DNA from: an uncultured Candidatus Binatia bacterium | GTDB lineage: Bacteria > Desulfobacterota > Binatia > UBA9968 > JAJDTQ01 | Assembly: GCA_965261895.1 (NCBI GenBank) | Contig: OZ253480.1 | Location: 3,947,665 to 4,011,664, forward strand | Length of the DNA: 64,000 nucleotides | Reading direction: 5' to 3' | In this document: positions 9,872-59,642 of the stretch, piece after piece | Numbering within the stretch: the first letter of the stretch is position 1 | How the letters are laid out: the number at the start of each line of letters is the position of its first letter | Program-made: the position numbers and the translations under genes | Notes under the pieces: model-generated | What the model was told of the DNA's origin: nothing | The model's input: the letters and a program-made list of their open reading frames with translations, nothing else | Databases searched by the model: none

Positions 9872-9941
9872 ACACTGCCCTCATCGTGCTCCCCGCCTAT
9901 TATGCCACCCGGCCCCACGTGCACGACGCCAAGGTAACGGT

Positions 9942-19287: not shown

Positions 19288-19334
19288 TGAGAGAGTACCT
19301 GTTGGAAGAAAGCCGGCCACGTACGGATGAGGCA

Positions 19335-21623: not shown

Positions 21624-21633
21624 GAGAACACCC

Positions 21634-36065: not shown

Positions 36066-36449
36066 CGGCGAGAACCGTTGCGCGGTCTGTTCGACCCCAC
36101 GGGGCATCGGCTTTCATTCGGATTATTGCAGCTACGGGAGGCTAGGGATGACCCTTTTTCGCTTACCTCGGACAACACGTTTTCTGCGCCGGATACCTGT
36201 GTCAAAGGCAACGGATCCAAGCTGGCGGGAGACCGGATCTCATTCGTGAAGCCAAGGCGACCCCAAGATCCTACAGCGTCAGGCGACGGGCGTTGTCGAC
36301 CGCTTGCCAACGTGTCTGTGGGCTCGTCGGATCGCGTTCCAATTTCCTTCCTCCCCAGGCGCCATCCCGTTTTCAGACCAGCGATGCCCTGCCGACGCAT
36401 GTGCATCGTTCTCATCTCTCTTACGCGAATTCACCGGGACCCTTCGACC

Positions 36450-39400: not shown

Positions 39401-42400
39401 CGACAACGAGTCGACCGTTCGAGTCATTCCTGACGGTCTCAAATTGAACGGCGGGACAATTCGGATCAAGGGGACCACGGTAAATGCCGACATCGCCCAC
39501 GCCGGCACGCAGACGGACCCGGACATCAACACGCGGTGGCTCGAGGGCATCGCGGTGACCTCGGCACCCGCCGTGCCAGAGACCGTGACCGGGAACCCTG
39601 TCTACGGCCCGGGCGAGAAGATTCAATTCAAGGTGACTTTCAAGAATGCAGTCGATGTCGATCAGACGGACGGCGCACTGAAGCTGAAATTTCGCTCGGG
39701 CAGCGCCACGGCAACCTACGCGGCGGACTATGAAAGCGGCACCGGCACGAAAGATCTGGTGTTCGCCTGGACCGTGCCGGCCAACATGCCGGATGACGGC
39801 GCCGGCCTCGTTGTTCCGACGAACGTTCACGGGCACGGGCACGGGTTCGATACCAGTCATGGACTGGTGCTGAACGGCGGGACGATCAAGAGCAGCGGCG
39901 GGATCGCGGTGAATATCCGCCACGGGCAGCACGATACGGATTCGCGGGTGGATACGACCGCGCCGGTTCTTGCGGCCGGCGCCGACGGTGCGACGGTGGA
40001 CGGCACGGCGCTTGTGCTCACATTCCAGAACCCGGATGACGGCAATTCGGCGGACCACCTCGACGAGGCCTCGGCGCCGGCGGACTTTGCCGTCACGGTC
40101 GCGGGATCGGCGCGGACCGTGTCGAGCGTGAATGTGAACGGCGCCACCGTCACCCTCACCCTCGCTTCGCCCGCGGGCCATGCCCAGGCGGTCACGCTGG
40201 GCTACACGCCGGGAACGAGCAGGATTCGGGACCGGTGGGGCAACGAGGCGGTCCAGATCGCCGGCCGGTCGGTGCGCAACGACAGCCCCGAGCCGTCGCT
40301 GTCGATCGAACCGGTGACGGTGCACGAAAGCGACGGCACGGCCACCTTCACGGTGACGCTGAGCGTCCCGAGCGCAGAGCAGGTTACGGTCGACTACGCG
40401 ACCGGGGACGGCACTGCGACGGCGGGGGCGGATTACACAGCGGCGAACGGCACCCTCACCTTTGCGCCGGGAGAAACGACCAAGCCCATCAGCGTCACGA
40501 TCGCCGATGACACTGTCGACGAGGATGGCGAGACCTTTTCGGTAACGCTCAGCAACGCGGTGAACGCGTCCATCGGTCAAGCGGCGGCGGCGGGAACCAT
40601 CACGGACGATGACCAGACGGCGTTATTTCTGTCGGGCCAAGTGACGGAGTTGATGGCCACGGCGACGGTGAACAAGGTCACGCTGACCTGGACGGCACCG
40701 TCCGGCACGATCCTCGGCTACCGGATCGAGGCGTCCTACGACGGCGGCACGGTCTGGGCCGAGGTAGAAGACAATACGAACGGGACCAGCACCGCCTACG
40801 CGCACGGTTCGGGGCTGATGGCCGGCGAGACCCGCGACTACCGGGTATCGGCAATCACCGGTGATGGCGCCGGCCCGCCGTCCGTCGCGGCCGCAGCCAA
40901 CGCTTCGGACACCGTCAACGGGCTGACGGCCACCGGTGTGTCTATCCAGGACACGCCGGACGGGATGGCAACGATCGATCTCTGTTGGAAACCGTCCGGT
41001 GTAGCGGTGAGCGAATTGAAGGATTTCGCGATCAGGGAGAGAAACGTCCATCCCTCATATCCCGCGGAGTGGAGCGATCAACACTGGTCTCCGTCGGGCA
41101 AGTCGAGGGCTGCCGATTGCGAGGCGGGAAGCATCGGCTTCCGGGTCTCCGGGAGGATTGCCCCGAATATCCGCTACGCCTTTCAGATCCGGGCCAGATA
41201 CGGGATGCGCTGGGCGCTCTCGAACGACGCCGACGCGGTATCGGTCGATGCGGCCCTGGATCTTCGCGCCGACGTGTTGACGGGCAATTCCAGCCTGTCG
41301 GGGGATACCGACGTGCCCGCCACCGTTTGCCCCGCCTATGACGACCCGGCGACGCCTGAGGCCGACGCCGGTTCATTCATCGTCAATATCGGGTTTTCCA
41401 CGCGGCCCGCGGTCATGCTCAATTACGAAGCGGTGACCGGATTCGTTCTGGACAATGACGTGACGCTCGAGAACGCCACCGCGGAGCTCATCGACCGGCC
41501 GTATGGCGCGCAGCTGGGCTATCGGGTCCGGATCACCCCTACTACCTGGGGGCAACCCGTGGCGGTGAGCGTGCCGGCGGGCGTCGTGACCCACCCTGCT
41601 TCGTCGGTCAGGAACCAGGCTTCCAACGTGTTCCGCCGCAACACCTCCGCCTCGACCGATTGCGACACGGGCAGCGATATAACGGTCTACCCGCCGGCCG
41701 TTAGGCGCACCGCAATTCTCGACGATGACGACCGCAGCGGCATGTGGTCGACAGGCGAGCGTGTCCGCGCGACGCTGGAATTCACCGAATCGGTGACGGT
41801 GACGACGGACAACGGTATCCCGACCGTTTCCCTGAGCATCGACGGCAAGACGGTGCAAGCCTCCTACGCAGAGGGGACAGGTGGCGACACGCTTGCGTTC
41901 GAACATGTCGTGACGGCCGAGCAGAGCCCGTTCAACAGTGCCAGTCTTGTGGCAAACAGCCTGTCGTTGAACGGCGGCGCGATCGCGAGCCTCGACGGAC
42001 CGGCGGCCACGCTGGCGCATCCGGGGGCTGTGAAACAGAAGAAACTGGGCACCGGGCCGAAGAAACCGGCTACCGAGCCCAAATTGACGGCCAATTGGGT
42101 GAAATTTCCGCCCGGCCATTCTGGAGACGGCAGGAAGTTCACGGTCCGCGTGAAATTCAGCGATCCCGTGACTATCAACGTGAGGTACTTCCGCGACTAC
42201 GCTCTTTCGGTGACCGGCGGTGTTGTCGACAAACTGTGGCGTGTCAAGGGAAGCGACGGCGAACCACGCAAGGACCTGTGGGCGATCAGGGTGATGCCGG
42301 CATCGCAGCAGCCGCTGTCATTGTCACTGGCGGCCATACAGGACTGCAGCCAGCATGGTGCGATCTGCACGGCGGATGGCACGCCGCTCTCCAACGCGGC

Positions 42401-44240
42401 ATCCATTACCGTGCCGGGGCCGAATCACGACCTCACGGTGGCGGACGCCGAGGTCGAGGAAGCCCCGGGCGCCGAGTTGGCGTTTGTCGTGACGCTGAGC
42501 GGGACAGCGCCCTACCGGGTCAAGGTGGATTACAGGACGGCGGACGGCACGGCGACGGCCGGCGAGGACTATACGGCGGTGGAAGGTACGCTCATCTTCG
42601 AGCGCGGCGAGACGTCGAAGACCGTTTCGGTGCTGGTGCTCGACGACGCTCATGACGACGACGGCGAAACCCTGACGCTCTCCTTGAGCAATCCGCTGCG
42701 CGCGATGATCGTCGACGGCGAGGCCGTGGGAACGATCCGCAACAACGATCCGATGCCTCGGGCCTGGCTGGCGCGCTTCGGGCGCACGGTCGCCGACCAG
42801 GTTCTGGCGGCGGTGGAGGGCCGGCTGAAGGCCGCGCGGGTGCCCGGCGTCGAGGCACAGCTTGCCGGGCAGCGGATCGCCGGCCCCGCGGCGCCGGACA
42901 CCGAGAAGGCCCATGAGGCGGAAGCCGAGGCCCGTCTCCTGGCGCTGTCGGACTGGCTGCGTGGCGCTGCCTGCCCCGACGAGTCTGAGCGCCAGGGTGA
43001 ATGCGCATTGGGCGGACAAGCGCGTTTCGACTCGCGGAAGCTGACGGGGCGGGACTTCCTGACGGGCTCTTCCTTCACACTGACGGGCGGAACGCGAGAG
43101 GGCGGTGTCGGTGCGTTGTGGGCCCAGGGAACGGTCGGACGATTCGAAGGGCGCGAGGGCGCCCTCTCTCTGGACGGCGAGGTGTTGAGCGGCATGCTGG
43201 GCGCGGACTGGACGCGCGGGCGTGGGACCGCGGGGTTCGTGCTTGCTCATTCCCGCGGCGACGGCGACTACCGCTCTGAATCGGGCGGGGGCGAGGTTTC
43301 CTCGACGCTGACCGGGATCTATCCTTACGGGCGCTACGCGGTGAACGAGCGCCTGTCCATGTGGGGCATCGTCGGCTACGGCGCTGGCGAGCTTGGGCTC
43401 ACGCCGGAGGGGAGCTCGCGGCTCGAGGCCGATATCGATCTCGCGATGGCGGCCGCGGGCGCCAGGAGTACCGTTCTCGATGGCGGCGACAACGGTCCGA
43501 CGGCGGCGTTGACGGCGGACGCGCTGATCGTGCGCACGAAGGCCGACGGGGCTCCGGGTCCGGCGGCCTCGAAGGCCGAGGTGACGCGTCTGCGTTTGGG
43601 GCTTGAAGGATCGTGGCCGTTTCCGCTGGAGGGCGGGGCACTGGTGACGCCAAGCGTCGAGATCGGGCTGCGCCAGGACGGCGGCGATGCCGAAGCCGGC
43701 TTCGGTGCCGACATCGGCGCCGACATCGGCGCCGGACTCGCTTGGGAGGACCCGCAGCGTGGCCTCAAGGCGGAGGTCCGGGGTCGTGGCTTGCTGACCC
43801 ATGAGGACGCGAATTTCCGGGAGCGCGGCTTCGCGGCCTCGTTCGCCTGGAACCCGACACCGGGCTCCAAGCTAGGCCCGTCCCTCACCCTGCGCCAGAG
43901 CGTGGGCGCTTCAGCGACCGGCGGTATGGACGCACTGCTCTCCCGCGGGACGATGGCGGGCGTCGCTACGAATGACAATCGCGAGAATGTTGCTCGCCGT
44001 CTCGAGGTGAAGCTGGGCTACGGGCTGCCAGTGGCCGGAGACCGGTTCATCGGCACGCCGGAGATCGGGGTCGGGTTCTCCGACACGGGCCGCGAATACA
44101 GCCTGGGCTGGGGCCTCGGACTTGCGCGGCGCGACCGGGGTTCCCTCGATCTCTCGCTTGAAGGGACGCGGCACGAGAGCGCGAACGGTGATCGCGGGCC
44201 GGAACACGGAATCGGTCTCAGGCTAAGGGCGCGCTGGTAA
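36450..44240 (+). CDS. Giant secreted/surface adhesin (~2600 aa): signal peptide, cadherin-like beta-sandwich repeats, FN3, Calx-beta domains, C-terminal autotransporter-like beta-barrel
   Basis: Signal peptide MHHLVVPCTVRCLAIMLFSAFVALLATPAYAQ. Repeats of TDATLS.L...TYTITVTR type (cadherin-like). Two near-identical FN3 units. Calx-beta (VTVDYATGDGTATAGADYTAANGTLTFAPGETTK). A ~480-aa C-terminal domain is shared with the 54588-59642 paralogue and ends ...LRLRARW. Confidence 0.7.
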   Translation: MHHLVVPCTVRCLAIMLFSAFVALLATPAYAQTEVPSNWPLKPPGLNVGDEFRLVFMGKVSRNADSTDVAVYDAHVQGRIAGIGHAEIKAYSSHFKVLGSTSTVNARMHTGTTGTGGVPIYWLNGPKVADNYADFYDGTWDDKDGATLEDGTSLSSGRKDQFICTGTNDDGTTASQPLGAATCAGTKINISGNTLSGATGASSAASRYLVLSGVFRVGNFTATIPTVESVRVTSDPGSDGEYVKDDAIKVTVTFSEAVAVTGTPKIKLRLSEEATPKRPGYVAAESTATALVFSYTVKATDYSHDGVIIPRNGIVLSGGATIKNQAGTVDADLDHAKKDSLSAHKVHVRPLVTGVTVASTPAANGIYRTGETIQIDLTFDKAVAVFTDFGTPEVWFVMDGSNPARREAAYTTTVGDHVVRFDYAVQAADLDDDGILFMNNAIVWNDGAIIRKAHGDVDDLDELKTLRVDENGGSTSTYPQTGHRVNAAVSTDATLSDLDLEDSNGAAIELTPSTFASTTTSYTASVAYAVDEITIVPTVIEIYATVAYLDASDTALTDADANKNGFQTPLAAGANTIKVKVTADDDFTTLTYTITVTRGAASTDATLSSLAFTDAANGNTISLTPGGNRTYTTSVISSVDEITVLPTVNESNATVAYLNASDTALTDADVAKDDFQVVLAVGANTIKVKVTAEDGDTIETYTVVVTRAALVPGQVTGVEVTPGTGRLKVDWNAVTNADGYKVQWKSGTETFTNAAANSREATVTSGSTTSHTITGLTNGTAYDVQVIATRTNAADETPSAPASGTPGAAPGQVTGVEVTPGTGRLKVDWDAVTNADGYKVQWKSGAETFADAAANSREATVTSGSTTRHTITGLTNGTAYDVQVIATRTNADDGTPSAPATDTPSQTVRITGVAFTNVPSNNVYNLGDTIEVSITFNAAVEVTGTPKVQMYFVDKHKFYEYANYDAAFSTDTVLVFKRLVTGDDDNESTVRVIPDGLKLNGGTIRIKGTTVNADIAHAGTQTDPDINTRWLEGIAVTSAPAVPETVTGNPVYGPGEKIQFKVTFKNAVDVDQTDGALKLKFRSGSATATYAADYESGTGTKDLVFAWTVPANMPDDGAGLVVPTNVHGHGHGFDTSHGLVLNGGTIKSSGGIAVNIRHGQHDTDSRVDTTAPVLAAGADGATVDGTALVLTFQNPDDGNSADHLDEASAPADFAVTVAGSARTVSSVNVNGATVTLTLASPAGHAQAVTLGYTPGTSRIRDRWGNEAVQIAGRSVRNDSPEPSLSIEPVTVHESDGTATFTVTLSVPSAEQVTVDYATGDGTATAGADYTAANGTLTFAPGETTKPISVTIADDTVDEDGETFSVTLSNAVNASIGQAAAAGTITDDDQTALFLSGQVTELMATATVNKVTLTWTAPSGTILGYRIEASYDGGTVWAEVEDNTNGTSTAYAHGSGLMAGETRDYRVSAITGDGAGPPSVAAAANASDTVNGLTATGVSIQDTPDGMATIDLCWKPSGVAVSELKDFAIRERNVHPSYPAEWSDQHWSPSGKSRAADCEAGSIGFRVSGRIAPNIRYAFQIRARYGMRWALSNDADAVSVDAALDLRADVLTGNSSLSGDTDVPATVCPAYDDPATPEADAGSFIVNIGFSTRPAVMLNYEAVTGFVLDNDVTLENATAELIDRPYGAQLGYRVRITPTTWGQPVAVSVPAGVVTHPASSVRNQASNVFRRNTSASTDCDTGSDITVYPPAVRRTAILDDDDRSGMWSTGERVRATLEFTESVTVTTDNGIPTVSLSIDGKTVQASYAEGTGGDTLAFEHVVTAEQSPFNSASLVANSLSLNGGAIASLDGPAATLAHPGAVKQKKLGTGPKKPATEPKLTANWVKFPPGHSGDGRKFTVRVKFSDPVTINVRYFRDYALSVTGGVVDKLWRVKGSDGEPRKDLWAIRVMPASQQPLSLSLAAIQDCSQHGAICTADGTPLSNAASITVPGPNHDLTVADAEVEEAPGAELAFVVTLSGTAPYRVKVDYRTADGTATAGEDYTAVEGTLIFERGETSKTVSVLVLDDAHDDDGETLTLSLSNPLRAMIVDGEAVGTIRNNDPMPRAWLARFGRTVADQVLAAVEGRLKAARVPGVEAQLAGQRIAGPAAPDTEKAHEAEAEARLLALSDWLRGAACPDESERQGECALGGQARFDSRKLTGRDFLTGSSFTLTGGTREGGVGALWAQGTVGRFEGREGALSLDGEVLSGMLGADWTRGRGTAGFVLAHSRGDGDYRSESGGGEVSSTLTGIYPYGRYAVNERLSMWGIVGYGAGELGLTPEGSSRLEADIDLAMAAAGARSTVLDGGDNGPTAALTADALIVRTKADGAPGPAASKAEVTRLRLGLEGSWPFPLEGGALVTPSVEIGLRQDGGDAEAGFGADIGADIGAGLAWEDPQRGLKAEVRGRGLLTHEDANFRERGFAASFAWNPTPGSKLGPSLTLRQSVGASATGGMDALLSRGTMAGVATNDNRENVARRLEVKLGYGLPVAGDRFIGTPEIGVGFSDTGREYSLGWGLGLARRDRGSLDLSLEGTRHESANGDRGPEHGIGLRLRARW
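38585..39177 (+). repeat. Two near-identical tandem ~297-bp units (FN3 domains) inside adhesin 1
   Basis: GQVTGVEVTPGTGRLKVDW(N/D)AVTNADGYKVQWKSG(T/A)ETF...GLTNGTAYDVQVIATRTNA is repeated in direct succession. Confidence 0.7.
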
Positions 44241-45585: not shown

Positions 45586-45700
45586 TGTCAAAAAACCGCC
45601 AGATTTCCCCAATGTTGGGGACGCGCTCTACGCGTAACTCGCATAAACTTCCATTCATCGCGCATCAGCGCCGCCGGGAGCAGGCTTTGACGTCTGTTCC
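45586..45700 (+). promoter_or_regulatory. Conserved upstream element, copy b
   Basis: GTCAAAAAACCGCCAGATTTCCCCAATGTTGGGGACGCGC...CGCGCATCAGCGCCGCCGGGAGCAGGC. Confidence 0.6.
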
Positions 45701-45774: not shown

Positions 45775-46302
45775 ATGAGGAGCGCCTTAACGAGATGGGC
45801 TTTCGCTGCAGCCTTCGGTCTCATCGTGAGCGCCGTTGGAATTTCGATCACGACCGAACAAGCCTGGGCCGACTCGTGCTCGGGGACGACTATCGGTCAC
45901 GGGAGCGCCGACTGCCTGACTGTGGTCTTCCAAAGGGGCAGGCAGGGTGTGGCGCTGACCAATGAGTGTTCGGGCCTGGGTGTCGTCACGGCGGAACTCA
46001 AGGTCATCAACTATGGCTCCGAGGGTACAGTCACCAGCCTTCAGGCACTGAGCAGTTCCGAAACTCTAGTAGAAATAATCGCGAATGACGAGGACGCGCG
46101 CTATACGAACGCACGCTGCTGCACGACCTCCGGTATTTGCGACAACACCGACTGCGACACGACCAACGGCGTGATTGACGATGATAGCCACAAGACGCAT
46201 TGCCGCCATATCGATGACACGACCGGCGCGGTAATCAGGGCGGGCACCGAGATAACGGACGGGGTGGTGACCTACACACCGCCATCTAACACCGGGTTCT
46301 AA
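45775..46302 (+). CDS. Small Cys-rich secreted protein (signal peptide), paralogue 1
   Basis: 175 aa. Signal peptide MRSALTRWAFAAAFGLIVSAVGISITTEQAWA. Ten Cys. RBS GGGAGGG. Confidence 0.6.
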   Translation: MRSALTRWAFAAAFGLIVSAVGISITTEQAWADSCSGTTIGHGSADCLTVVFQRGRQGVALTNECSGLGVVTAELKVINYGSEGTVTSLQALSSSETLVEIIANDEDARYTNARCCTTSGICDNTDCDTTNGVIDDDSHKTHCRHIDDTTGAVIRAGTEITDGVVTYTPPSNTGF

Positions 46303-46594: not shown

Positions 46595-46700
46595 TCAAAG
46601 AAAAACGCCAGATCTCCCCAATGTTGGGGACGCGCTCTACGCGCGACTCGCCTAATCTATCAACCATCGCGCATCAGCGTCGCCGGGAGCAGGCTTTGAC
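46595..46700 (+). promoter_or_regulatory. Conserved upstream element, copy c
   Basis: GTCAAAGAAAAACGCCAGATCTCCCCAATGTTGGGGACGCGC...CGCGCATCAGCGTCGCCGGGAGCAGGC. Confidence 0.6.
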
Positions 46701-46784: not shown

Positions 46785-47318
46785 ATGAAGAGCGCGTTAA
46801 CGAGATGGGCTTTCGGTGCAGCCTTCGGTTTCATCGTGAGCGCCGTTGGAATTTCGATTACGACCGAACAAGCCTGGGCCGACTCGTGCACGGGGACGAC
46901 TATCCGTCATGGGAGCGCCGACTGCCTGACCGCGGCCTTCTCAAACAACAGGCAGACTTTGTCGCTGACGAGTGAATGTTCGGGCCTGGGTGTCGTCACA
47001 GCCGAAGTCAAAGTAATCGACCTTGGCACCGAGGGACCAGTCATCTATCTTTGGACGCTGAACAACTCCACGCCTTTCGTAACCCATATCTCGAATAATA
47101 GCGACGCGACCTATACGAACGCACGCTGCTGCCCGACCTCCGGCATCTGTGACATCACGGACTGCGACACGACCAACGGCGTGATTAACGATTCGAGCCA
47201 CAAGACGCATTGCAGCTATATCGACAATACGACCGGTGTAATCACGTCAGGTAACGAGATAACGAACGGACAGGTGATCCATACACCGCCCACACCGCCA
47301 TCTGACACCGGGTCCTAA
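46785..47318 (+). CDS. Small Cys-rich secreted protein, paralogue 2 (tandem duplicate)
   Basis: 177 aa, ~65% identical to paralogue 1 with the same signal peptide and Cys spacing. The 3' flank is also duplicated (46303-46420 vs 47319-47430). Confidence 0.6.
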   Translation: MKSALTRWAFGAAFGFIVSAVGISITTEQAWADSCTGTTIRHGSADCLTAAFSNNRQTLSLTSECSGLGVVTAEVKVIDLGTEGPVIYLWTLNNSTPFVTHISNNSDATYTNARCCPTSGICDITDCDTTNGVINDSSHKTHCSYIDNTTGVITSGNEITNGQVIHTPPTPPSDTGS

Positions 47319-47433: not shown

Positions 47434-48930
47434 ATGCATGATCCGGAGTGCCGTGCGGAGATCCGGTCGGCGTCGGCCGGTGCATGTCCAAGTGGCCGCG
47501 AGGCGGTGCGGCGGGGGTTGTGGCGCGTCGTCCTCATCCCCTTGCTGCTTGCGATGCCGCTGCTCCTGGCGCCTTGCCCGTCGACGTTCGGGCAGGCAAG
47601 GGACGCCACCGGGGACCAGCACCTGGTGTTGACGGTGGATGCTGCGATCCGGCTGGCGCTACGGAACAACCGAGGCCTGATCGACGCCCGGCTCGCCCGA
47701 ACGTTGCAGGAGTTCGCGCTCGACGTGGCCGGGGACCGCTACCGGCCCACGGTGACGATCGGACCGTCCACGCAGGCGCAAAAGGCGCAGGACTGGAAGG
47801 CGGACGTCGACGCCGAGACCGGGCTCAGGATTCGCACCGGCGGCCGGATCACGTTGCGATGGTCGAAACCCATCGCAGGGCAGGACGACACTTCGGGCAC
47901 CGTCACCCTGGGCTTTTCACAGCCGTTGCTGAAGGGCTTCGGGGCTTCGGTGGATACGGCGCCGGTCCGGTCGGCTCGGCTGACCGACGAGGTCAACATG
48001 CTCGCGTTCCGCGAGGCGATCGCCGGTGTGGTGACCTCGACGATCCGCGCTTGGCGGGACCTCGTCCGGGCTCGGCGGCAGCTCGATATAGGCGAGTCCT
48101 CGCTGGAGCGGGCGCGTAAGCAACTCGAGATCAACCGGACGCTGATCGAGGCGGGCCAGATGGCGGCGCGGGAGATTCTGCAGAGCGAGGCCAACGTCGC
48201 CGACCGGGAGCTTACCCTGGTTCAGTCGCGCAACCGCGTGACCGTAGCCAATTTCCAATTGATCGACATTCTGGACGTCGACAGCGCCACGGAGGTCCGT
48301 CCGCTGGCGATGCCGGTCGCCCGGCAGCCGGATCTTTCGCTGGAAGAGGCCATCGCCGTGGCTCTGCGCCACGCGCCCGCCCATGCGCTGGCTCTGCTCG
48401 ACGTGGAGATCGCCGCGATCGATCTGGAGGTGGCGGAGAACAAGACGCTCTGGGACCTCACCCTGGATGCCGAGGCGTCGCGCGGCACCGGCGGGGGCGG
48501 TGAGGCGACCGACTATGCGGCGGGCCTGCGGCTGACCATTCCGCTGTGGGACCGCTTGCCCGAGCTCGGGCTCATGAGCGCCAGAGCCGGTGTCCAGCGG
48601 GCGGAGCGCGGCCTTGCCGAGGTCCGTCAGGCGACGGACATCGCGGTGCGCCGGGCGGTCCACGACGTGGAGGTGGGTTTGCGACGGATCGCGCTCGCCC
48701 GTGACGCGCGCGCGCTTGCCGAAGAGAAGCTCGAGATCGAGCGGAGCAAGCTGCAGCAGGGTCTGTCGTCCACCTTCCAGCTCAGCCGCTTCGAAGAGGA
48801 TCTGGTGCGCGCACAGAACGCCGAGGTGGATGCGCTCATCGACCATGAGAACGCGTTGACGACACTCGACCGGACGCTCGGCACGACGCTGGAGACCTGG
48901 GATATCGGTGTCGAAGAGGTCGGGCGATGA
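47434..48930 (+). CDS. TolC-family outer membrane efflux/secretion protein
   Basis: 498 aa with an N-terminal hydrophobic signal. OMF repeat helices LALRNNRGLIDARLARTLQEF and LE(I/V)NR. The true start may be internal. Confidence 0.7.
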   Translation: MHDPECRAEIRSASAGACPSGREAVRRGLWRVVLIPLLLAMPLLLAPCPSTFGQARDATGDQHLVLTVDAAIRLALRNNRGLIDARLARTLQEFALDVAGDRYRPTVTIGPSTQAQKAQDWKADVDAETGLRIRTGGRITLRWSKPIAGQDDTSGTVTLGFSQPLLKGFGASVDTAPVRSARLTDEVNMLAFREAIAGVVTSTIRAWRDLVRARRQLDIGESSLERARKQLEINRTLIEAGQMAAREILQSEANVADRELTLVQSRNRVTVANFQLIDILDVDSATEVRPLAMPVARQPDLSLEEAIAVALRHAPAHALALLDVEIAAIDLEVAENKTLWDLTLDAEASRGTGGGGEATDYAAGLRLTIPLWDRLPELGLMSARAGVQRAERGLAEVRQATDIAVRRAVHDVEVGLRRIALARDARALAEEKLEIERSKLQQGLSSTFQLSRFEEDLVRAQNAEVDALIDHENALTTLDRTLGTTLETWDIGVEEVGR

Positions 48931-50696
48931 CGGAAGAGCGCGCGGACATCCACGGGCGCGTACTCGACCATCTGCTGGACGGGGTGATGGTGGTCGAGCG
49001 GGGCGGCACGATCACGGTGTTCAACCCGGCGGCGGCGCGCATCCTCGGTGTCTCGCCCGAGGAGGTGGCAGGCAGGACCTTCACCGAGCTCTTCATCGCG
49101 CGAGAGGGGTTCGAGGAGTTCTCGGACCTCCTCCTGGACGCCGTCCAGGGCGAGGGCGAGGGCGGCCGGCAGGTGGTGACGCTGCATACCGGCGATGCGG
49201 CGCGGACGCTTTCGGTGGCGATCTCCTACATCGGATCGAGCGGGGACGACGCCGGCGAGAGGGTGGCGCTGATCGCCGTGTTCAGCGACATCACCGAGTT
49301 GCGCGAGCTGCGCGAGACCGAGCTTCGCATGGCGAAGGCGGTGGAGGCGCAGCATGCAGAGCTTCAAACCGCGTACCGGCAGATCGAGCAGCGGAACGAT
49401 TCGCTGGCCGCGATGCTGAAGAAGGTCCAGGTGGCGCGGGTGCTGGCGACGGTGGTGGTGATCGGGGTTTTCCTGGGGGCAGGCGTCTATGTCTGGCGGC
49501 CCCTCGACCTGTTTGGCCCCGTCTTTGGGCCCTCGGTGGTGTCTCACGCCGATGCCGCGAAGGGGTTGCGGACGATCGTGGTGGAGCCGCGGCAGACGCG
49601 GGAGACGATTGCGCTGGTGGGCAAGATCACGCCGTGGCGGACGGTGACGGTGACCAGCCCCATCGAGAGCCGCGTCTCGGCAGTGCACTTCCAGTATGGC
49701 CAGAAGGTGGGAAAGGGCGATCTTCTGGTGGAATTGGATACCTCCGAGTTGGTGCGGAAGCACCGTCGGGCGCAGGTGGCGTATATCAATGCGTTGGAGG
49801 CTTTCGAGACCGTCAGGGACTGGAAGAACGGCCCCGAAATGATAGTCGCGCGGCGGGCGTTCGCGCGGGCTCGGATTGCACTTGAGAGCCAGGAGACCCG
49901 GCTGAAGCGGACCACTTTCCTGCTGGAGCAGGGCCTCGTTCCCGCATCCCAGCATGAGGAAGCGGAGCGTCAGCACCGGCGCCAGCTTCTGGATTTCGAG
50001 GCCGCCCGCCAGGACCTTGAAGCAGCCCGGGCCAGGGGTGGCGAGGAGGCGGTGGACAAGGCGGCGCTGGAGTTGAGCAGTGCCAAGGAAGAGATGCAGG
50101 AGCTTGCGAAGAGCGCGGGCCAGGGCCGTGTTCTCGCGCCGGTGTCGGGGGTGGTGCTGGCGTCCTCCGGGGCCGGCGCAAAGGTTCTCGCGCCGGGACG
50201 GTCAGTGGAAAAGGGCGAGGCGATACTGAAGATTGGGGACTTCAGCCGCATTGCCGCCACCGCGATGGTCGACGAGGTCGACGTGGTGCGGCTCGCGGTC
50301 GGCCAGACGGTGTCGGTGACCGGCAACGCGTTCCGCGATCTGCGGATGCGGGGGACCGTGACCCACGTTTCGTCGCAGCCCCTCCCGAGGGCGCGGGGCG
50401 CGGCCCGGTTCGAGGTCAAAGTGACGCTGGACCCGCTGGACGCGCATCAGAAAAGGCGGTTGCGGACGGGAATGTCGTGCGTGCTGGAGATCGTCATCTA
50501 CAACAAGGACGCGGCGCTGATGGTCCCCATCGAAGCGGTGGAGCGAAGCGGCCGGTCTCACCGTTTGCGTGTGATCCATGGCGAGACCCGCATCGTTCAG
50601 CACCGCGAGGTGGAGGTCGGCCCCACCACCCTGGATTCGGTCGAGATCACGTCCGGGCTGAAGCCGGGTGACGAGATCGTCGTCCCGACGGAATGA
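48927..50696 (+). CDS. Membrane fusion protein (HlyD/MacA-like periplasmic adaptor) with an N-terminal cytoplasmic PAS domain
   Basis: Residues 1-120 are PAS-like (LLDGVMVVERGGTITVFNPAAARILGVSPEEVAGRTFTELF). A TM helix follows (VARVLATVVVIGVFLGAGVYVW), then biotinyl-lipoyl, beta-barrel and MP domains of an MFP. Confidence 0.7.
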   Translation: MTEERADIHGRVLDHLLDGVMVVERGGTITVFNPAAARILGVSPEEVAGRTFTELFIAREGFEEFSDLLLDAVQGEGEGGRQVVTLHTGDAARTLSVAISYIGSSGDDAGERVALIAVFSDITELRELRETELRMAKAVEAQHAELQTAYRQIEQRNDSLAAMLKKVQVARVLATVVVIGVFLGAGVYVWRPLDLFGPVFGPSVVSHADAAKGLRTIVVEPRQTRETIALVGKITPWRTVTVTSPIESRVSAVHFQYGQKVGKGDLLVELDTSELVRKHRRAQVAYINALEAFETVRDWKNGPEMIVARRAFARARIALESQETRLKRTTFLLEQGLVPASQHEEAERQHRRQLLDFEAARQDLEAARARGGEEAVDKAALELSSAKEEMQELAKSAGQGRVLAPVSGVVLASSGAGAKVLAPGRSVEKGEAILKIGDFSRIAATAMVDEVDVVRLAVGQTVSVTGNAFRDLRMRGTVTHVSSQPLPRARGAARFEVKVTLDPLDAHQKRRLRTGMSCVLEIVIYNKDAALMVPIEAVERSGRSHRLRVIHGETRIVQHREVEVGPTTLDSVEITSGLKPGDEIVVPTE

Positions 50697-50708
50697 GCGG
50701 CCGGGGTC

Positions 50709-51389
<681 letters not shown>

Positions 51390-51403
51390 CGCGGGCAGGT
51401 GCG

Positions 51404-52618
51404 ATGAGGGGCCTACGCCCGATTCTGGCAGCCAACCTTCGCGAGGCTGTACGCAGTCTCCACGGGGCTCGGTTGCGGACAGTGCTGGGGCTGATCGGCG
51501 TCATGCTGGGCATCTCGTCGGTGATCGCCATGATCTCGTTGGGGGAGATCGCGAAGGCCGAGTCGCGAAAACGGTTCGAGGCCCTCGGCACCGACATTCT
51601 TGCCATCACCAAGTCCGACACCTCGGCCGCCGCCCGTAGGCGGGGAGCGGTCATTGGCCTCGAGGATGCGCTTGCGCTGGCAGACGCGGTCCCGACCGTG
51701 TCGGAAACCGGGCCCCAGACCGAGGCGCAGGGTTCTTTTGCGTATGGCGGGAAATCCATGGGTCGGGGATTGACGCAGGGCGTATCGGCCGCGTTCGCGC
51801 GCGTGAACAGGTTACAGGTCGCCGAAGGGCGGTTCCTGTCCGACATGGACGCGGAACGCTATTTTGCGGTGGTGGGCGCCGACCTGGCCTCGGCCATGCG
51901 CCGCGGCGGGGCGCGAGAAGTCGTAGGCGAGGTCCTGGAGATCGACGAGCGGCTGTTCACCGTCGTGGGCGTGCTGGCGGATACGCCCGAGACCTACGCG
52001 TTGCCCTTCCAGTTGCAAGCGAACCATTCGGTGTTCGTGCCGATTACCACCGTGCGGCGCATCGACCCGAGCACCGAGATTGGACTGATCGTCGCACGCG
52101 CGACAGCCGGTGTTCACCACGCGGATGCGGCACGCGATGTCCAAGCCTATTTCAGCGGTCGCACAAGGGGCCTCGCTCTCAGGGTCACCAGCGCCGAGCA
52201 ACTGATCGAGCGGATGGAGTCTCAACTGGGACTGATGACGCTTCTTCTGGGTGCCGTCGGCAGTATCAGCCTTATCGTCGGCGGCATCGGAGTGATGAAC
52301 ATCATGCTGATTTCGGTGGCCGAGCGGCGGCGCGAGATCGGCATCCGCCGGGCGCTCGGCGCGACGCGCGGGGACATCCAAGGTCAGTTCTTGATCGAGG
52401 CTGTGATCCTGACGCTCTGTGGGGGGCTGGCGGGCATCGTGGTCGGCTGCGGGGCCACCTACGGTGTCTGCCGGTTCACCGGGTGGGAGTTCTTTCTATT
52501 GCCGAGTTCTATCGCAATAGGTGTCGCCGTCTCGTCCGTGGTCGGGGTCTTCTTTGGCTTCCAGCCCGCCTATCAAGCGTCCCGTCTAGACCCCATCGTC
52601 GCCCTGCAAGGGCAATAG
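51404..52618 (+). CDS. ABC transporter permease (MacB/FtsX-type, with periplasmic domain)
   Basis: 404 aa. An N-terminal TM is followed by a ~200-aa periplasmic domain, then three C-terminal TMs characteristic of FtsX-like permeases. Confidence 0.8.
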   Translation: MRGLRPILAANLREAVRSLHGARLRTVLGLIGVMLGISSVIAMISLGEIAKAESRKRFEALGTDILAITKSDTSAAARRRGAVIGLEDALALADAVPTVSETGPQTEAQGSFAYGGKSMGRGLTQGVSAAFARVNRLQVAEGRFLSDMDAERYFAVVGADLASAMRRGGAREVVGEVLEIDERLFTVVGVLADTPETYALPFQLQANHSVFVPITTVRRIDPSTEIGLIVARATAGVHHADAARDVQAYFSGRTRGLALRVTSAEQLIERMESQLGLMTLLLGAVGSISLIVGGIGVMNIMLISVAERRREIGIRRALGATRGDIQGQFLIEAVILTLCGGLAGIVVGCGATYGVCRFTGWEFFLLPSSIAIGVAVSSVVGVFFGFQPAYQASRLDPIVALQGQ

Positions 52619-52740: not shown

Positions 52741-52830
52741 GTCAAACCGTCAAATCTCCCCAATATTGGGGAGGCATGGAAGCGCCTGAGCGTTTACACT
52801 TCAAACATGCGTCAGCGCCGCCGGGAGTGG
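52741..52830 (+). promoter_or_regulatory. Conserved upstream element, copy d (perfect 18-bp palindrome CTCCCCAATATTGGGGAG at 52756-52773) upstream of the LuxR-family regulator
   Basis: GTCAAACCGTCAAATCTCCCCAATATTGGGGAGGC...GCGTCAGCGCCGCCGGGAG. Confidence 0.6.
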
Positions 52831-52948
52831 GTGCCGGCGACATCGGTGTGTAAGGTTGCAGCGGAGAATATGCGGAACAAAGAAGGGTTCTTGCCACCCA
52901 GCGGCTGGGAATTGCGCCGGCCGAGCGTCCGCAAACGAAGGCGCGGTC

Positions 52949-54100
52949 ATGAGTGAACGGGAGGCGTTCGACCGCATTCTGGCTTCGTTGCACGAGGTGG
53001 CGCTCGACCCTGGCCACTGGTCGACCGCCACCGCGCTGATCGACCAAGCCCTCCGCACGCACGGCAGCAGCATGGTGTTCGGCGACGGGCACTCCGAAGA
53101 GGACATCCGAATCTACTTTACGTGGGCCTTTTTCCGTGGGCAACGGCACCGGGAATTGGAGCGCGAGTACTACGAGGTCTACTACCCCCTGGACGAACGG
53201 GCCCCCCGCATACGGTATGCCCCCGACAGCCGGTTGTACCACGTTACCGACCTCTACACCGAGAAGGAGCTGAAGACCTCCACGACATACAACGAGCTGT
53301 TGGCCCGCGCCCACGCCCAGAACGGCATCCATGTGCGCCTGGACGGGCCCAATGGCTCGCGCATCGTCTGGGTCGTCAACGACCCGGTCGACGGGGACGG
53401 CTGGTCGTCCGCCCAGCTCGGCTCGATCCGGCGTCTCCTGCCCCATATCCGTCAGACCGTGCGCGTCCAGCAGGCGCTGGCCGGGACCGGTGCTCTGCGC
53501 GCGTCCCTCGCGAAGCTGCTTGACGCCACCGGGTTGGGCATCGTCCATCTCGACGGGCGTGGGCGGATCGTGGCGGCGAACGACCGCGCCCGGGATTTGC
53601 TGCGGACCGGCGACGGTCTGTTCGACGAGGACGGTTTCCTCTACGCCCGCACGCGGGAGGACAATGCCGAACTCCAAGAACTGTTGACGCGAGCGCTGCC
53701 GCCGTTCGGGGCACAGGGCGCGGGCGGCTCGACGATGGTGAGGCGCTCGTCCGGCCGGTCGCCGCTGGTGCTGCACGTCAACCCGGTGGGCCGGCAGGAG
53801 ACGGTCTGGCCGGTCTGGCCGGTCGCGGCGCTCGTGCTGGTCGTCGACCCGGCAAACCAAACCCGCATCGATCCGGCCGTGGCTGCGGCGGCTCTCGGCC
53901 TCACGGGGATGGAGAGCCGGGTGGCGGTGCTGTTGGCCGACGGCATGAACGTCCGCGAGGTCGCCGCGGCAACGGGCCGCGGGGAAAGCACGATCCGCTC
54001 GCATGTGAAGCACATGTTCGACAAGCACGGTCTGTCGCGGCAGGCGGAGCTGGTGCGGCTTGTGCAGTCGTTGGCCGGCGCTCCGGAGTCCCGACGCTAA
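52949..54100 (+). CDS. LuxR/GerE-family transcriptional regulator (C-terminal HTH; ~300-aa N-terminal domain uncharacterised)
   Basis: C-terminal GerE HTH (LTGMESRVAVLLADGMNVREVAAATGRGESTIRSHVKHMFDKHGLSRQAELV). The N-terminal start is MSEREAFDRIL. Confidence 0.7.
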   Translation: MSEREAFDRILASLHEVALDPGHWSTATALIDQALRTHGSSMVFGDGHSEEDIRIYFTWAFFRGQRHRELEREYYEVYYPLDERAPRIRYAPDSRLYHVTDLYTEKELKTSTTYNELLARAHAQNGIHVRLDGPNGSRIVWVVNDPVDGDGWSSAQLGSIRRLLPHIRQTVRVQQALAGTGALRASLAKLLDATGLGIVHLDGRGRIVAANDRARDLLRTGDGLFDEDGFLYARTREDNAELQELLTRALPPFGAQGAGGSTMVRRSSGRSPLVLHVNPVGRQETVWPVWPVAALVLVVDPANQTRIDPAVAAAALGLTGMESRVAVLLADGMNVREVAAATGRGESTIRSHVKHMFDKHGLSRQAELVRLVQSLAGAPESRR

Positions 54101-54130: not shown

Positions 54131-54262
54131 CTCGTCTGCCTTGCCTTCATTCCTGAGACACAGTCAAAAACCGCCAAATCTCCCCAATCTCGGGGACGCG
54201 CGCCACGCGCGACTCGCGTAATCTTTCATCCATCGCGCATCAGCGCCGCCCGGAGCAGACCC
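54131..54262 (+). promoter_or_regulatory. Conserved upstream element, copy e (imperfect palindrome TCCCCAATCTCGGGGA) upstream of giant adhesin 2
   Basis: CAGTCAAAAACCGCCAAATCTCCCCAATCTCGGGGACGCGC...CGCGCATCAGCGCCGCCCGGAGCAGACCCGGCGAG. This is also similar to copy a. Confidence 0.6.
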
Positions 54263-54362: not shown

Positions 54363-57300
54363 ATGAGCACCTTGAGCACCTTCGACGCCTGGCACCGCTG
54401 GCTGACCGGCCTCCTTCTCGTGGCGGGTCTCGCCGTCCTCGCCGCGACGCCCTCCCATGCCGATCCCGCGGATGGCGACCTGCGCCTCAGAGGAGGTGCC
54501 ACGCACAACGAAGGACGGTTGGAGATCTTCTAAGACAACGAGTGGGGGACCGTCTGCGACGACTTCTTCGGGAGAAGGGACGCGAAGGTGGCCTGCAAGC
54601 AGATGGGCTATACGGGAGCGGAAGCGTACCTCACGGACGTCGCGGTAGCACCGGGCAGGCGGTTTTGGCTCGACGACGTCAATTGCGTGGGGAACGAAGC
54701 CAAACTGACCGAGTGCTTCTACAACAGCAACGTCAGAAACATCAGCAGCAGAACCAGCCCCCAATGGGGAATCGCCAACTGCATACCGTCGGAACAGGTG
54801 GGCGTGCGCTGCACGGCCTCGACCTCGGACGAGAGCGTGGAGCTCAACGAGAGCCACCTCACGGTGCAGGAGCAGGGCGGCGGGTCGAGATACACGGTCC
54901 GTCTGGGCAAGGCGCCGACCGGGAACGTGACGGTGGCAATCTCCGGGCAGAGCTCGACGGTGACGGTCGACTCCACGCCCCTGACCTTCACGACGGGAAA
55001 CTGGAGCACGCCGCAGAGGGTGACCCTGACCGCCTTCGACGACTCGAACCGGACCGACGACTCGTTCACCCTCACCCACACCGCGTCCGGGGGCGGGTAC
55101 GGCAGTGTGACCGAGAGCCTCAGCGTGACGGTTGAGGACGACGACGGTCCGGTGCAGGCCCATATCGATTACGGTGGCATTGTCAGTCTGACCGAGGGCG
55201 GTAGCCGCACCTACAGCATCTGGCTGGATAGCGCTCCGACCGAACAGGTGACGGTGGCGGTGACCGCGCCGTCGAAGGTGAGCGCGACCCCGGCGAGCCT
55301 GACCTTCACGACGGGGAACTGGAGCACGCCGCAGACGGTCACGCTCGAAGCGCAGGACGACAACGACACCTCCGACGAGACGCAGTATGTGACGCACAGG
55401 GCCACCAAAGGCGACTACACCACGACCTTGAGCAGAGTTCAGGTGGAGATTACGGACGACGACGACGGTGAGGACCAGATCGGCTCGCGGCCGTCCGGGG
55501 CGTTGTGGTGGGCGGCGCTGACGGCGCGGCGGGAGACCGGCGGGGCGACCGGGCACATCGACTACACGAGCCCGCATGCGGACACCGGCAAGCTCTCGAA
55601 CGACAGCTTCACCTACGGCGGGGTGACGCGCGCGATCGACGGGCTGTTCGTCGACCGCAACGGGCACTTCCAGATCTGGGTGGATTCGGGGAACGGCTCG
55701 GTGCTGCCGAACGGTTCCGTGCTGCATGTAGGGAGCGAGTCGCTGACGCTCGGCAGCGCGACGCGGCAGTCGTTCAGGACCATGTACAACGACGGCAGGA
55801 CGCCGATCATGCGCGAGCACGCCTACTGGTGGCAGTCGGGCTCGCACGGTGTGAGCCTGTCGGACCGGCAGGTGGTGGCGGTGTGGCTGGAGGTGCCCGC
55901 CGGGAGTGAGCTGCCCGGGGTGCCGAGGAGTGTCAACGCGCAGGCGCGGGACGGCAAGGCGAGCCTGGAGTGGGGTGCGCCGCCGGAGGTCCCGTCGAAA
56001 CCTGTCACGTCCTACGAGTACCAGCAGGAAGGCACGGAGACGTGGAACTCCACGGGCGGGACGGCGACGACGAAGGAGGTGACGGGCCTCGCCAACGGCG
56101 CGAGCTACACCTTCCGGGTGCGTGCCGTGAACGCGGCGGGCAAGGGCGCGGCGTCGGCGCCGACGCCGGCGGTGACGCCGGCGGCACCAGGGCTGACGGC
56201 GTCGTTCGTGTCGGTTCCGGAGGCGCACGACGGGAGCAGTGCGTTCACGCTGCGGCTTGAGTTCAGCGAGGATGTGGCCGGGCGTTTTCGGCGGATGCGG
56301 AGCGACGTGTTCGAGGTGACGGGGGGCGCGGTGACGGACCTGCGGCGTGTGGACCGGCGCCGGGACTTGTGGACGGTCACGGTGACGCCGTCGTCGGAGG
56401 ACGAGGTGACGGTGGCGGTGCCGGCGGGCCGGGCGTGCGATGTTTCGGGGGCGGTGTGTACGGCCGACGGCGAGCAGTTGTCGAGCCGTGTGGAGGCGAC
56501 GGTTCCCGGCCCTCTGCCGACGGTGTCGGTGAGCGCGGGAACGAGCCCGGTGACGGAGGGCACGGCGGCAGCCTACACGCTCACGCGCACGGGCGACACG
56601 GCGGCAGCGCTGACGGTGACGGTGAGCGTGAGCGAGGACGGCGCGGTACTCTTGGGGACGGCGCCGACGGAGGCGATCTTTGCCGCGGGCTCGGCGACGG
56701 TCGAACTCACGGTCGCAACGGAGGACGACGCGGTTGCCGGGGACGGGAGCGTGGTGACGGTCGCGCTTGTGGCCGGCACGGGCTACGCGCTCGATGCGGA
56801 CGCCTCCGCGGCAACGGTGACGGTGGCGGACGACGACGCGGTGACGGAGAACACGGCGCCGACGGGCCTGCCGACGATTGCGGGTACGGTGCGGGCCGGT
56901 GAGACGCTGACGGCGTCGGCCACGGGCATTGCGGATGCGGACGGGGTCGCCGATGCGGTTTTCGCCTGGCAATGGATCGCGAACGACGGGACGGCGGACG
57001 CCGATATCGCGGATGCGACGGGGACGAGCTACACGCTGACGGCGGCCGAGGTTGGCAAGACGGTCAAGGTGCGCGTCACCTTCACCGACGACGGCGGGAC
57101 GGCGGAGACGTTGGTCGGCGCGGCGACGGCGGCCGTGGCGGCGCTTCCGGCGATCTCGGTGGCGGCGGTTGCGTCGCCGGTGACGGAGGGGGCCGCGGCG
57201 GCGTTCACGCTCACCCGCACGGGCGACACGGCGGCGGCGCTGACGGTGTCGGTGTCGGTCACGCAGGCGGGCGCGGTGCTGTCGGGCACGCCGGGCTCGA

Positions 57301-59642
57301 CGGTGACGTTCGGGGCGGGGAGCGCCGAGGCGACTTTCAGCGTGGCAACGGAGGACGACAGTGTGGCCGAGGCGGACGGGCGGGTGACGGTGACGGTCTC
57401 CGCGGGGTCGGGCTACACCGTGGATGCCGATGCGGCCTCGGCCGGGGTCGACGTGTATGACAACGACGGGGCGGCAACGACGCCGACAACGGCGGCGGAG
57501 ACGCTGTGGACCTCGACCCTGACGCCGGAGAGCATCGGCGGCGCCCTTTTCGGCTATTTGGGCTCCGGCAACGCTCTGTCTCCCAACGGATGGTCGGAGG
57601 ACGGGACGTCGTTCCAGGTCGATCAGTTGTACTACTTCCCGGAGTACGCGGAACTGGTGTTCAAGGTCTCGGCTGCGCCTCCCGAGTTGGGACAGTTGAC
57701 GCTTCATCTGGACAATGTGCAGGTGCAACTGAGGGGCGTGTCGAGCCAGCGATACTTCTACTGGACGGTGGCGGACCTCGGCTGGCAGGCGGGGCAGGCC
57801 GTGGCGGTGAAGCTGACGCGGACGGACCCGGACGCGGTGGCGGTCGCCGGGCCCGGCCTCTCGGTGGCGGATGCGCAGGTCCGTGAAGCCGATGGGGCGG
57901 TGCTCGCCTTCCGGGTGAGTCTGGATGGAGCGCAGAGCTCTGCGGTCTCGGTGCGTTATGCGACATCGGACGGCACGGCGGCGGCGGGTTCGGATTACCT
58001 CGCCCGTTCCGGGACGCTGCGGTTCGCACCGGGCGAGACCGCGAAGACGGTCTCGGTGGCGGTGCTGAACGACGCGCATGACGAGGGCTCGGAGACGATG
58101 ACGGTCACCCTCTCGCAGCCGTTCGGGGCCGAGCTTTCAGATGGCGCGGCGACGGGGACGATTGCGAACACCGACCCGATCCCGCAGGCGTGGAGTGCCA
58201 GGTTCGGGCGCACGGTGGCGGAACAGGTTCTGGAAGCGGTCGAGAGCCGGATGAGGGCGTCGCGGACGCCGGGGGTCGAGGTCCGTCTTGCCGGCCAGCG
58301 GGTCGGCGGCGGGGCGGCCCAGCACGGGGCCGACTCGGAGGACGATGCCGCGCTGGCGGCGGCCGAGCGAGGCCAGGCTCACTGGCTTTGGCAAGAGAAC
58401 GATCCGGAACGGCAGCGCGGCTTCGGCGCGCGGTCGGTGACGGAGTTCGACCTGCTGACCGGTTCGTCCTTTTCGCTCACGGGCGGGACGCAGGGGAGCG
58501 GTTTCTACGCGCTGTGGGGCCGCGGGGCGGTAACGCGGTTCGACGGGCGGGAGGAAGAGCTTGCCCTCGACGACGAGGTGGCCAGCGGTATGCTGGGCGC
58601 GGACTGGGCGCGGGGCGCCATCACGGCGGGTCTGGTGGTCGCGCATAGCCGTGGCAAGGGCAGCTACCGCGGAGAGGGCGACGGCGGGGTGACCTCGTCG
58701 CTGACCGGGCTCTATCCCTGGGGCCGCTATGTGCTGAGCGAGCGGCTCTCGGTCTGGGGTGTCGCGGGGTACGGCGCGGGCACGTTCACGCTGACGCAGA
58801 AAGGCCCGCAGGGTGAGGCCGGGGCGCCGATCCAAACCGACCTCGACCTGATGATGGCGGCGGCCGGCCTGCGCGGGGTTGTGGTGCAGGCGCCGGCGAC
58901 GGGCGGGTTCGAGCTTGCGGTGAAGACCGACGCGTTGGGCGTGCGTACGAGCACGGCGAAGGCGCGTGGGCTGGAATCCTCGGATGCGGACGTGACGCGC
59001 CTGCGTGTGGGGCTGGAAGGCTCCCGGCCTTCGCCGTTGTCGGGAGGCGGGAAGCTTGTGCCGAGCGTCGAGATCGGGGTTCGGCATGACGGCGGCGATG
59101 CCGAGACGGGCTTCGGCGTCGACATCGGCGGCGGTCTCGCCTGGTCCGACCCGAAACGCGGCCTCTCCGCCGAGTTGCGGGGGCGCGGCCTGCTGAGCCA
59201 CGAGGCGAGGGGATTCGAGGAGCACGGCTTCTCCGGCGCGCTCGGCTTCGATCCGACGCCGGACACCGAGCGTGGTCTCAATCTCACCATGAGCCAGACC
59301 GTAGGCGTGCAGGCGGCGGGCGGCATGGACGCGCTGATGTCGCGCGACACGCTCGCGGGGCTGGCGGCCGACGACCCCGGCGGCGAGCCGGCGCGGCGCC
59401 GCTTAGAGATGCGGCTGGGCTACGGTCTGGCGGCCTTCGGCGACCGTTTCACCGGGACGCCGGAGATCGGCTTCGGCTTCTCGGGCACCCAGCGCGACTA
59501 CAGCCTGGGCTGGCGGCTGACGCCTGCAGACCGTTACCGGGAATCGTTCGAGCTGTCGCTGGAGGCGCGGCGGCACGAGATCGCGAACGACGATGTCGCG
59601 CCAGAGCACACGATCGGGTTCAATCTGACCGCGCGCTTCTAG
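54363..59642 (+). pseudogene. Giant adhesin 2 (~1760 aa), paralogue of adhesin 1: signal peptide + SRCR-like domain interrupted by in-frame TAA (54531-54533), then Ig/cadherin-like and Calx-beta repeats and the shared C-terminal beta-barrel-like domain
   Basis: MSTLSTFDAWHRWLTGLLLVAGLAVLAATPSHA...[47 protein letters not shown] matches the SRCR pattern (RLVGG..CEGRVEVY.NGQWGTVCDD.W...A.VVCRQLGC). The same frame (mod 3 = 0) runs from 54363 to 59642 except for the single TAA. The downstream ORF 54588-59642 encodes Calx-beta (VRYATSDGTAAAGSDYLARSGTLRFAPGETAKT) and a C-terminus ending NLTARF. Confidence 0.55.

Follow-up and report, generated by a model that had tools for sequence, protein, structure and literature searches.

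A stop codon within the SRCR domain of an autotransporter-like adhesin gene in an uncultured Candidatus Binatia bacterium: a probable recent pseudogene

Organization of the SRCR-headed adhesin gene

A 64,000-nucleotide stretch of contig OZ253480.1 from an uncultured Candidatus Binatia bacterium (assembly GCA_965261895.1, positions 3,947,665 to 4,011,664 of the forward strand), referred to here as the window, contains a gene for a giant autotransporter-like adhesin that carries an SRCR domain near its N-terminus and is interrupted within that domain by an in-frame stop codon. The frame extends from an ATG at 54363 to a stop at 59640-59642, a total of 1759 codons, and translation reveals a sole internal stop, the TAA at 54531-54533. 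The gene and its parts are as follows; structural entries are based on AlphaFold models, for which pLDDT is the predicted local distance difference test score.

54363..59642, + strand: SRCR-headed autotransporter-like adhesin gene; 1759 codons with one interruption at codon 57; colinear with the intact orthologue P0121 at locus L004
54363..54461, + strand: Sec-type signal peptide of 33 amino acids (aa), judged by eye, with predicted cleavage between SHA and DP
54477..54821, + strand: SRCR domain of group-A type, aa 39-153 (Pfam PF00530, PDB sequence matches and fold match)
54531..54533, + strand: in-frame TAA at codon 57; it falls in SRCR beta-strand 2, the buried strand GRLEIF-x-DNEW
54588..54605, + strand: first restart codons past the stop, GTG 54588 (Val76) and ATG 54603 (Met81), both within the SRCR domain
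54831..55469, + strand: two Ig-like beta-sandwich domains (pLDDT ~85-95 in the model of homologue P0017; weak fn3_6 match)
55923..56168, + strand: fibronectin type III (FN3) domain, aa 521-602 (Pfam PF00041, E=5e-9)
57858..58130, + strand: Calx-beta domain, aa 1166-1256 (Pfam PF03160, E=5e-22)
58203..59639, + strand: C-terminal helix and beta-barrel, autotransporter-translocator-like, ending ...LTARF (model pLDDT 60)

The predicted signal peptide (MSTLSTFDAWHRWLTGLLLVAGLAVLAATPSHA, cleaved ahead of DPADG) has a basic n-region, a hydrophobic core (LLLVAGLAVLAA) and an A-x-A-like site, and the cleavage motif AHA followed by D recurs across members of the adhesin family. The frame then continues through DLRLRGGATHNEGRLEIF, the TAA, and DNEWGTVCDD... 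without a change of frame, and both the sequence and the position of the stop codon are exactly as the initial annotation had quoted them. Codon 57 is thus a TAA inside the SRCR domain, which is not coded without interruption, and past it the frame is fully open for 1702 codons. Two details need correction, in that the product cut at codon 57 is 56 aa and not 57 aa in length, and the SRCR domain reaches ~54821 rather than ending at 54650. The downstream frame had also been described as beginning at an internal Met and lacking a signal peptide; neither restart codon has a signal peptide after it, but the first available start is the GTG at 54588, which precedes the ATG at 54603. Internal starts of the Val76 and Met81 kind are used by gene callers in other broken members of the family.

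Identity of the SRCR domain

The initial annotation had left its SRCR assignment to be checked by a PF00530 scan, and the assignment is amply confirmed. Domain searches were run on the conceptual translation with codon 57 set to Tyr, and the Pfam SRCR model matches aa 39-153 with E=1.4e-22 and 80.3 bits, against a cutoff of 26.1; the score within the full-length protein is 71.7 bits. Among PDB sequences, phmmer matches the domain to SCARA5, MARCO, SCARA1, M2BP, neurotrypsin, DMBT1, CD5L, CD6 and CD163. The fold was tested on homologue P0017, whose SRCR domain is 91% identical to that of the window, using an AlphaFold model and a 37-sequence alignment. The model has a pLDDT of 82 overall and ~90 across most of the SRCR part, and it superimposes on the group-A structures 1by2, 6j02, 7c00, 7dpx and 2oy3 with target-normalised template-modelling (TM) scores of 0.84-0.89 and a root-mean-square deviation of 1.7-1.9 Å at 34-37% identity.

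The residues expected of a working domain are also present. Cysteines 65, 78, 108, 118, 140 and 150 are at the canonical group-A positions and are nearly invariant in the 37-sequence alignment, and D66, D67, D104, D105, N139 and E144 align with the canonical CDD, LDD, N-C and x3-E cation-site positions. In SALSA/DMBT1 the two cation sites are formed by the essential residues D1019, D1020, D1058, D1059, N1081 and E1086, and Asp-to-Ala changes at the first Asp pair end all ligand binding (PMC7043408). With none of the six cysteines or six cation-site residues missing, the intact form of the adhesin would contain a complete and plausibly functional SRCR domain.

The closest structural comparison is with the metazoan group-A SRCR domains of M2BP/LGALS3BP (1by2), SCARA1/MSR1 (6j02 and 7dpx), SCARA5 (7c00 and 7bzz) and MARCO (2oy3), which share the fold and the six-cysteine pattern; the six residues of the two cation sites that serve ligand binding in SALSA/DMBT1 are likewise found in the adhesin. 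The adhesin domain differs from the metazoan ones in that it is encoded in a bacterial gene, with a GC content at third codon positions (GC3) of 0.81, and occurs only once, at the tip of a passenger predicted to be anchored in the outer membrane, and it differs from CD163 in having a 12-residue insertion, NSNVRNISSRTSP, ahead of the WG(I)ANC motif.

The stalk and C-terminal barrel

The two Ig-like domains follow the SRCR domain and are part of a head cassette that is common to the paralogues at 93-97% nucleotide (nt) identity, as described below. At the other end of the protein, a fold search with the C-terminal model gives the beta-domains of BrkA, NalP, Hbp, EspP and EstA as the best compact matches, with target-normalised TM scores of 0.54-0.64. 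Residues 2-18 of the modelled segment are predicted to form a helix ahead of a large beta-barrel, and the helical linker and terminal aromatic residue of autotransporters are both seen, with ...LTARF in the window and F or W in the paralogues. Homologue P0227 has a precomputed match to PF03797.

These features suggest an autotransporter-like adhesin resembling the type Va autotransporters (BrkA, EspP, NalP, Hbp and EstA), in which an N-terminal signal peptide, a long passenger, and a C-terminal helix and barrel with a final aromatic residue occur in the order predicted here. There are also differences: the adhesin passenger strings together Ig-like, FN3 and Calx-beta beads behind an SRCR head and has no beta-helix, and its barrel region is ~390 aa in length. 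Because searches with PF03797 and PDB sequences miss the barrel, type Va membership is based on a medium-confidence model together with the PF03797 match of a single homologue, and we regard it as only partly demonstrated.

Comparison with related loci

The window was compared with six related loci (L001 to L006). At L004, which has the same upstream genes as the window (OEP, PAS-containing membrane-fusion protein, ABC, MacB and LuxR-type regulator), the syntenic orthologue P0121 is uninterrupted and of equal length, with 96% aa identity and CAC (His) at codon 57. Locus L001 is 98% identical in nucleotide sequence and likewise has CAC at this codon, and the gene is also intact at L003, which lies on a 6.17 Mb chromosome of an alphaproteobacterial metagenome-assembled genome (MAG). 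Among 32 family proteins the codon-57 residue is His in 26 and Tyr, Asn and Arg in one each, with three unreadable. The comparison with orthologues that the initial annotation had proposed shows that the gene is normally a single frame of 1759 codons with His or Tyr at position 57, which the annotation had described as a conserved Tyr/His codon.

The origin of the TAA is apparent from the paralogue at L005, which reads GGACGGTTGGAGATCTTC-TAC-GACAACGAG and matches the window except that the codon ends in C instead of A. The window and L005 both have T at 54531, but the A at 54533 occurs only in the window: none of the six relatives (two orthologues and four paralogues) has it. Because the TAC of L005 sits on an identical local haplotype, TAA is one C-to-A step from Tyr and, as read from this alignment, the window stop is a private, single-step change.

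Stop codons and frameshifts are widespread elsewhere in the family. Five of the seven loci examined (the window, L001, L002, L005 and L006) carry an inactivating lesion, leaving only L003 and L004 intact, and the lesions in the other loci are:

L001:7750, insertion of one T
L002:6160-11393, at least six frameshifts, with an adjoining integrase gene
L005:8729, CAG to TAG
L006:8328, insertion of 16 nt, and L006:9038, deletion of 1 nt

In these related contigs the SRCR-autotransporter genes are broken while the flanking genes are intact, and the lesions are independent of one another. They cannot be read errors, and the family is demonstrably often inactivated. Many database members begin inside the SRCR domain or finish in out-of-frame tails, and 23 of the 32 family members among the matches listed are truncated, although this number is inflated, since the search apparently lists no match longer than ~1.75 times the query and a short query therefore favors short relatives. 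Intact members surfaced with the full-length query, the short first query having over-represented the truncated ones.

The segment encoding the SRCR and Ig-like domains (54506-55550) is 93-97% identical in nucleotide sequence between the window and L002, L003, L005 and L006, whereas among the same loci the signal peptides are ~65% identical and the C-terminal barrels ~50%, with two barrel types that end in either ...TARF or ...SYRW. In the first 3.8 kb of the gene, the window and the intact orthologue differ at 124 sites, 120 of which carry alleles found in paralogues, and the differences are strongly clustered. Because the heads are shared while the signal peptides and barrels diverge, and because of the paralogue alleles and their clustering, the pattern indicates gene conversion or cassette exchange, as far as can be judged from the alignments.

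Interpretation of the stop codon

We think it likely that the stop is genuine and that the window copy of this SRCR-headed, autotransporter-like adhesin gene became a pseudogene very recently. In the intact protein, the Sec signal peptide would direct export to the periplasm and the C-terminal beta-barrel would insert in the outer membrane, giving a type-Va-like surface adhesin in which a stalk of ~1200 aa, built of Ig-like, FN3 and Calx-beta domains, would hold one group-A SRCR domain at its distal tip. This tip would probably bind polyanionic or glycan ligands on a partner surface, because the three disulfides and the Ca2+-dependent ligand-binding site are kept. In the window, a single C-to-A transversion would have changed TAC (Tyr57) to TAA so that translation stops after 56 residues, and re-initiation at GTG 54588 or ATG 54603 would yield a cytoplasmic protein that has no signal peptide and is missing the initial third of the SRCR domain. 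The adhesin is presumably not made, because the first product ends at 56 residues and the restart product cannot be exported, and the inactivation would be very recent, because nothing else is damaged in the 5.3-kb reading frame or in the conserved module upstream of it. Of the three alternatives offered by the initial annotation, probable inactivation is the one best supported. The stop itself would be an ordinary pseudogenising mutation of little wider consequence. There is a resemblance to the adhesin pseudogenes and contingency genes of host-associated bacteria, in which a big surface-protein gene similarly carries a point lesion while its neighbors are intact, and lesions recur independently; here, however, there is no homopolymer or short-repeat switch, and the lesions are substitutions and indels at differing sites.

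Several observations weigh against this interpretation. Private synonymous and non-synonymous changes number 50 and 52 in the window and 28 and 23 in L004, which is no difference, and the ratio is close to 1:1 in all three close lineages, so that these counts give no independent indication of relaxed constraint. The adhesin assignment also has its weak points, as the last 480 aa are not recognized in Pfam, NCBIfam, PDB phmmer or PDB profile searches, the C-terminal model has a pLDDT of 60, a medium confidence, and exceeds a canonical 12-strand barrel in length, and the signal peptide is assigned by eye alone. Moreover, C-to-A changes are a known class of oxidative-damage artefact. This last point, together with the flawless remainder of a gene that is 96% identical to its intact orthologue and the lack of any excess of non-synonymous private changes, would fit a sequencing or consensus error that hides a TAC (Tyr) codon in a gene for an intact, functional adhesin. 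The TAA is one base from an allele observed in the family, and the multi-copy head, with paralogues that are 93-97% identical, is the likeliest place for reads to be mis-mapped during polishing. However, the alleles seen elsewhere in the family, CAC and TAC as well as the Asn and Arg codons, all end in a base other than A, so mixing of paralogue reads would not yield TAA. No interruption is seen in the other large genes of the window, and the general quality of assembly appears good because the flanking genes are unbroken in the window, L001 and L004. Genuine nonsense and indel lesions are also demonstrably common in the family, the 16-nt insertion at L006 among them. On balance we consider a base-call error unlikely.

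It is extremely improbable that the stop is bypassed, by near-cognate readthrough or a suppressor tRNA, or that a downstream restart gives a functional product. The 1702 open codons past the stop and a purine-rich GGGAGAAGGG located 8-13 nt upstream of GTG 54588 are what such readings would have in their favor. However, TAA closes four other GC3-rich frames in the window (5411-8281, 36030-44240, 50697-51389 and 52790-54100) and is not reassigned, since it terminates these; all 29 homologues of the 32 in which the position is readable carry a sense codon there; and a restart product lacking the signal peptide, Cys65 and D66/D67 would be neither exportable nor able to fold as an SRCR domain. No tRNA was found in the window, and the surroundings of the site match no Rfam recoding element. 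Reassignment or readthrough of the stop, the latter having been suggested in the initial annotation, was rejected on these grounds. Its other suggestion, phase variation, finds no support in the classical sense and was likewise discarded, because the lesion replaces a single base and has no simple-sequence repeat in its vicinity; Tandem Repeats Finder reports no repeat at or near codon 57, and weak two-copy repeats only elsewhere.

The family pattern raises a further alternative, namely that the adhesin repertoire is variable and that the broken copy belongs to it as a silent or reversible member, with gene conversion swapping heads and such a copy being repaired or donating sequence. The shared heads between divergent signal peptides and barrels, the clustered paralogue alleles, the five broken loci that keep the conserved upstream module, and the abundance of truncated database members could all be accommodated in this way. 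On the other hand, the paralogue loci derive from different assemblies or contigs and are not shown to be co-resident in one genome, and the count of truncated members is drawn from short-query matches and biased to short proteins. The A that makes the stop occurs in the window alone and not among the alleles shared between cassettes, the analysis identified neither a recombinase nor dedicated machinery, and L002, with its many frameshifts, looks like plain decay. A silent repertoire member is thus quite unlikely, and there is only a slim chance that the locus exemplifies recombinational on/off switching and antigenic variation as opposed to dead-end decay. The broadest form of the proposal is similarly doubtful: that SRCR-headed autotransporters constitute a recombining multigene repertoire in an animal-associated bacterium, with head cassettes moved between scaffolds, one palindrome promoter module under a LuxR-type regulator, and broken copies acting as silent donors or off alleles. 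If it were true, this would be a bacterial system of antigenic or host-recognition variation built around a host-like scavenger-receptor domain. With its mosaic heads, recurrent inactivation and common promoter module, the family is well suited to the study of adhesin repertoire change, and binding studies could start directly from the intact orthologue P0121.

SRCR domains in bacterial proteins

Eukaryotic contamination was considered as the source of the SRCR domain and rejected, as the domain is contiguous with bacterial genes, has a GC3 of 0.81, and is syntenic on several bacterial contigs. The surrounding genome is ~62% GC and the composition of the SRCR region is not atypical. The domain is 40-45% identical to the best animal SRCR domains and 43-52% identical to more distant bacterial ones, and because of these similar identities and the native composition there is no evidence of recent transfer; recent horizontal acquisition from an animal is, from these comparisons, not supported either way.

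The initial annotation regarded SRCR domains as rare in bacteria, and this needs to be tempered: about 35 of the best 120 full-length matches are bacterial-type giant proteins with a precomputed SRCR match, and NCBI already names one SRCR giant protein, from a Rhodospirillales MAG. Our literature search found no papers linking SRCR domains with autotransporters or bacterial genomes, and the papers that it did find treat SRCR as a domain of the host and not of the symbiont. An SRCR head on a bacterial autotransporter-like adhesin appears to be an undescribed combination of domains; automatic annotation already flags the SRCR domain there.

A further parallel is with the eukaryote-like proteins of animal-associated bacteria (reviewed in PMC4850255 and PMC5845141), in which an animal-type extracellular recognition domain is likewise carried by a bacterium; in sponge symbionts these include proteins with ankyrin, leucine-rich repeat (LRR), FN3 and cadherin domains. 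The genomes of such bacteria typically have a dense island of restriction-modification and toxin genes, and the window has one too. P0214, a distant giant-protein relative, is from AqS1, the symbiont of Amphimedon. Literature searches by ENA/INSDC accession gave no habitat, and the contig names resemble metaMDBG output of the kind used in sponge genome notes, which is no more than a hint. If the organism is host-associated, the family would be a candidate for molecular mimicry or for the capture of host scavenger-receptor ligands.

The upstream palindrome module and neighboring genes

The region upstream of the adhesin gene contains a short palindrome that recurs in the window, and a regulator gene:

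54181..54196, + strand: 16-bp palindrome TCCCCAATCTCGGGGA, candidate operator/promoter of the SRCR gene, inside a conserved upstream module of ~110 nt
35988-36003, 45606-45621, 46615-46630, 52757-52772 and 54181-54196: the palindrome copies in the window
52949..54100, + strand: PAS/GerE (LuxR-type) regulator gene, with weak Pfam matches to GerE, HTH_23 and PAS_8, and the palindrome upstream at 52757-52772

The palindrome, TCCCCAAT·ATTGGGGA, is present in five copies where none is expected by chance, and all five lie upstream of genes on the + strand, which encode adhesin 1 (described below), two small secreted Cys-rich proteins, the LuxR-type regulator and the SRCR adhesin. The module is kept upstream of the SRCR genes in L001 to L006 and is also found at L004:13402. 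Judged by its placement, it looks like a shared operator/promoter of an adhesin regulon; a possible -10 sequence, TAATCT (54219-54224), would put the center of the box near -42.5. The regulator is called as a protein of 383 aa in both L001 and L004.

Adhesin 1 (36036-44240, with a likely true start at Met 36450) is likewise giant and autotransporter-like; it lacks an SRCR domain and has cadherin-like, FN3, SWM-repeat and Calx-beta domains. Its barrel and that of the SRCR adhesin share 57% identity, and the gene sits upstream of a P450 gene, in the slot held by an SRCR adhesin in L005 and L006. The two Cys-rich proteins, each of ~175 aa, are encoded by tandem paralogous frames (45775-46302 and 46785-47318), each behind its own palindrome module; they have a signal peptide (...ISITTEQAWA, ahead of DSC) and neither has a Pfam match. 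Between the P450 gene and the regulator gene is a tripartite efflux operon (47434-52618) of OEP, PAS-containing membrane-fusion protein, ABC and MacB type, and this is absent from the same slot in L005 and L006, in which the regulator gene adjoins the P450 gene.

The region between 2705 and 30000 is a defence island containing the following:

2705-3484 and 16607-17626: two RES-domain proteins
5507-13018 and 19302-24371: two type I restriction-modification systems
9765-11006: Schlafen/AlbA_2 protein
24404-28330: N6-methylase/specificity/AAA fusion of 1308 aa
28327-29916: a further AAA protein

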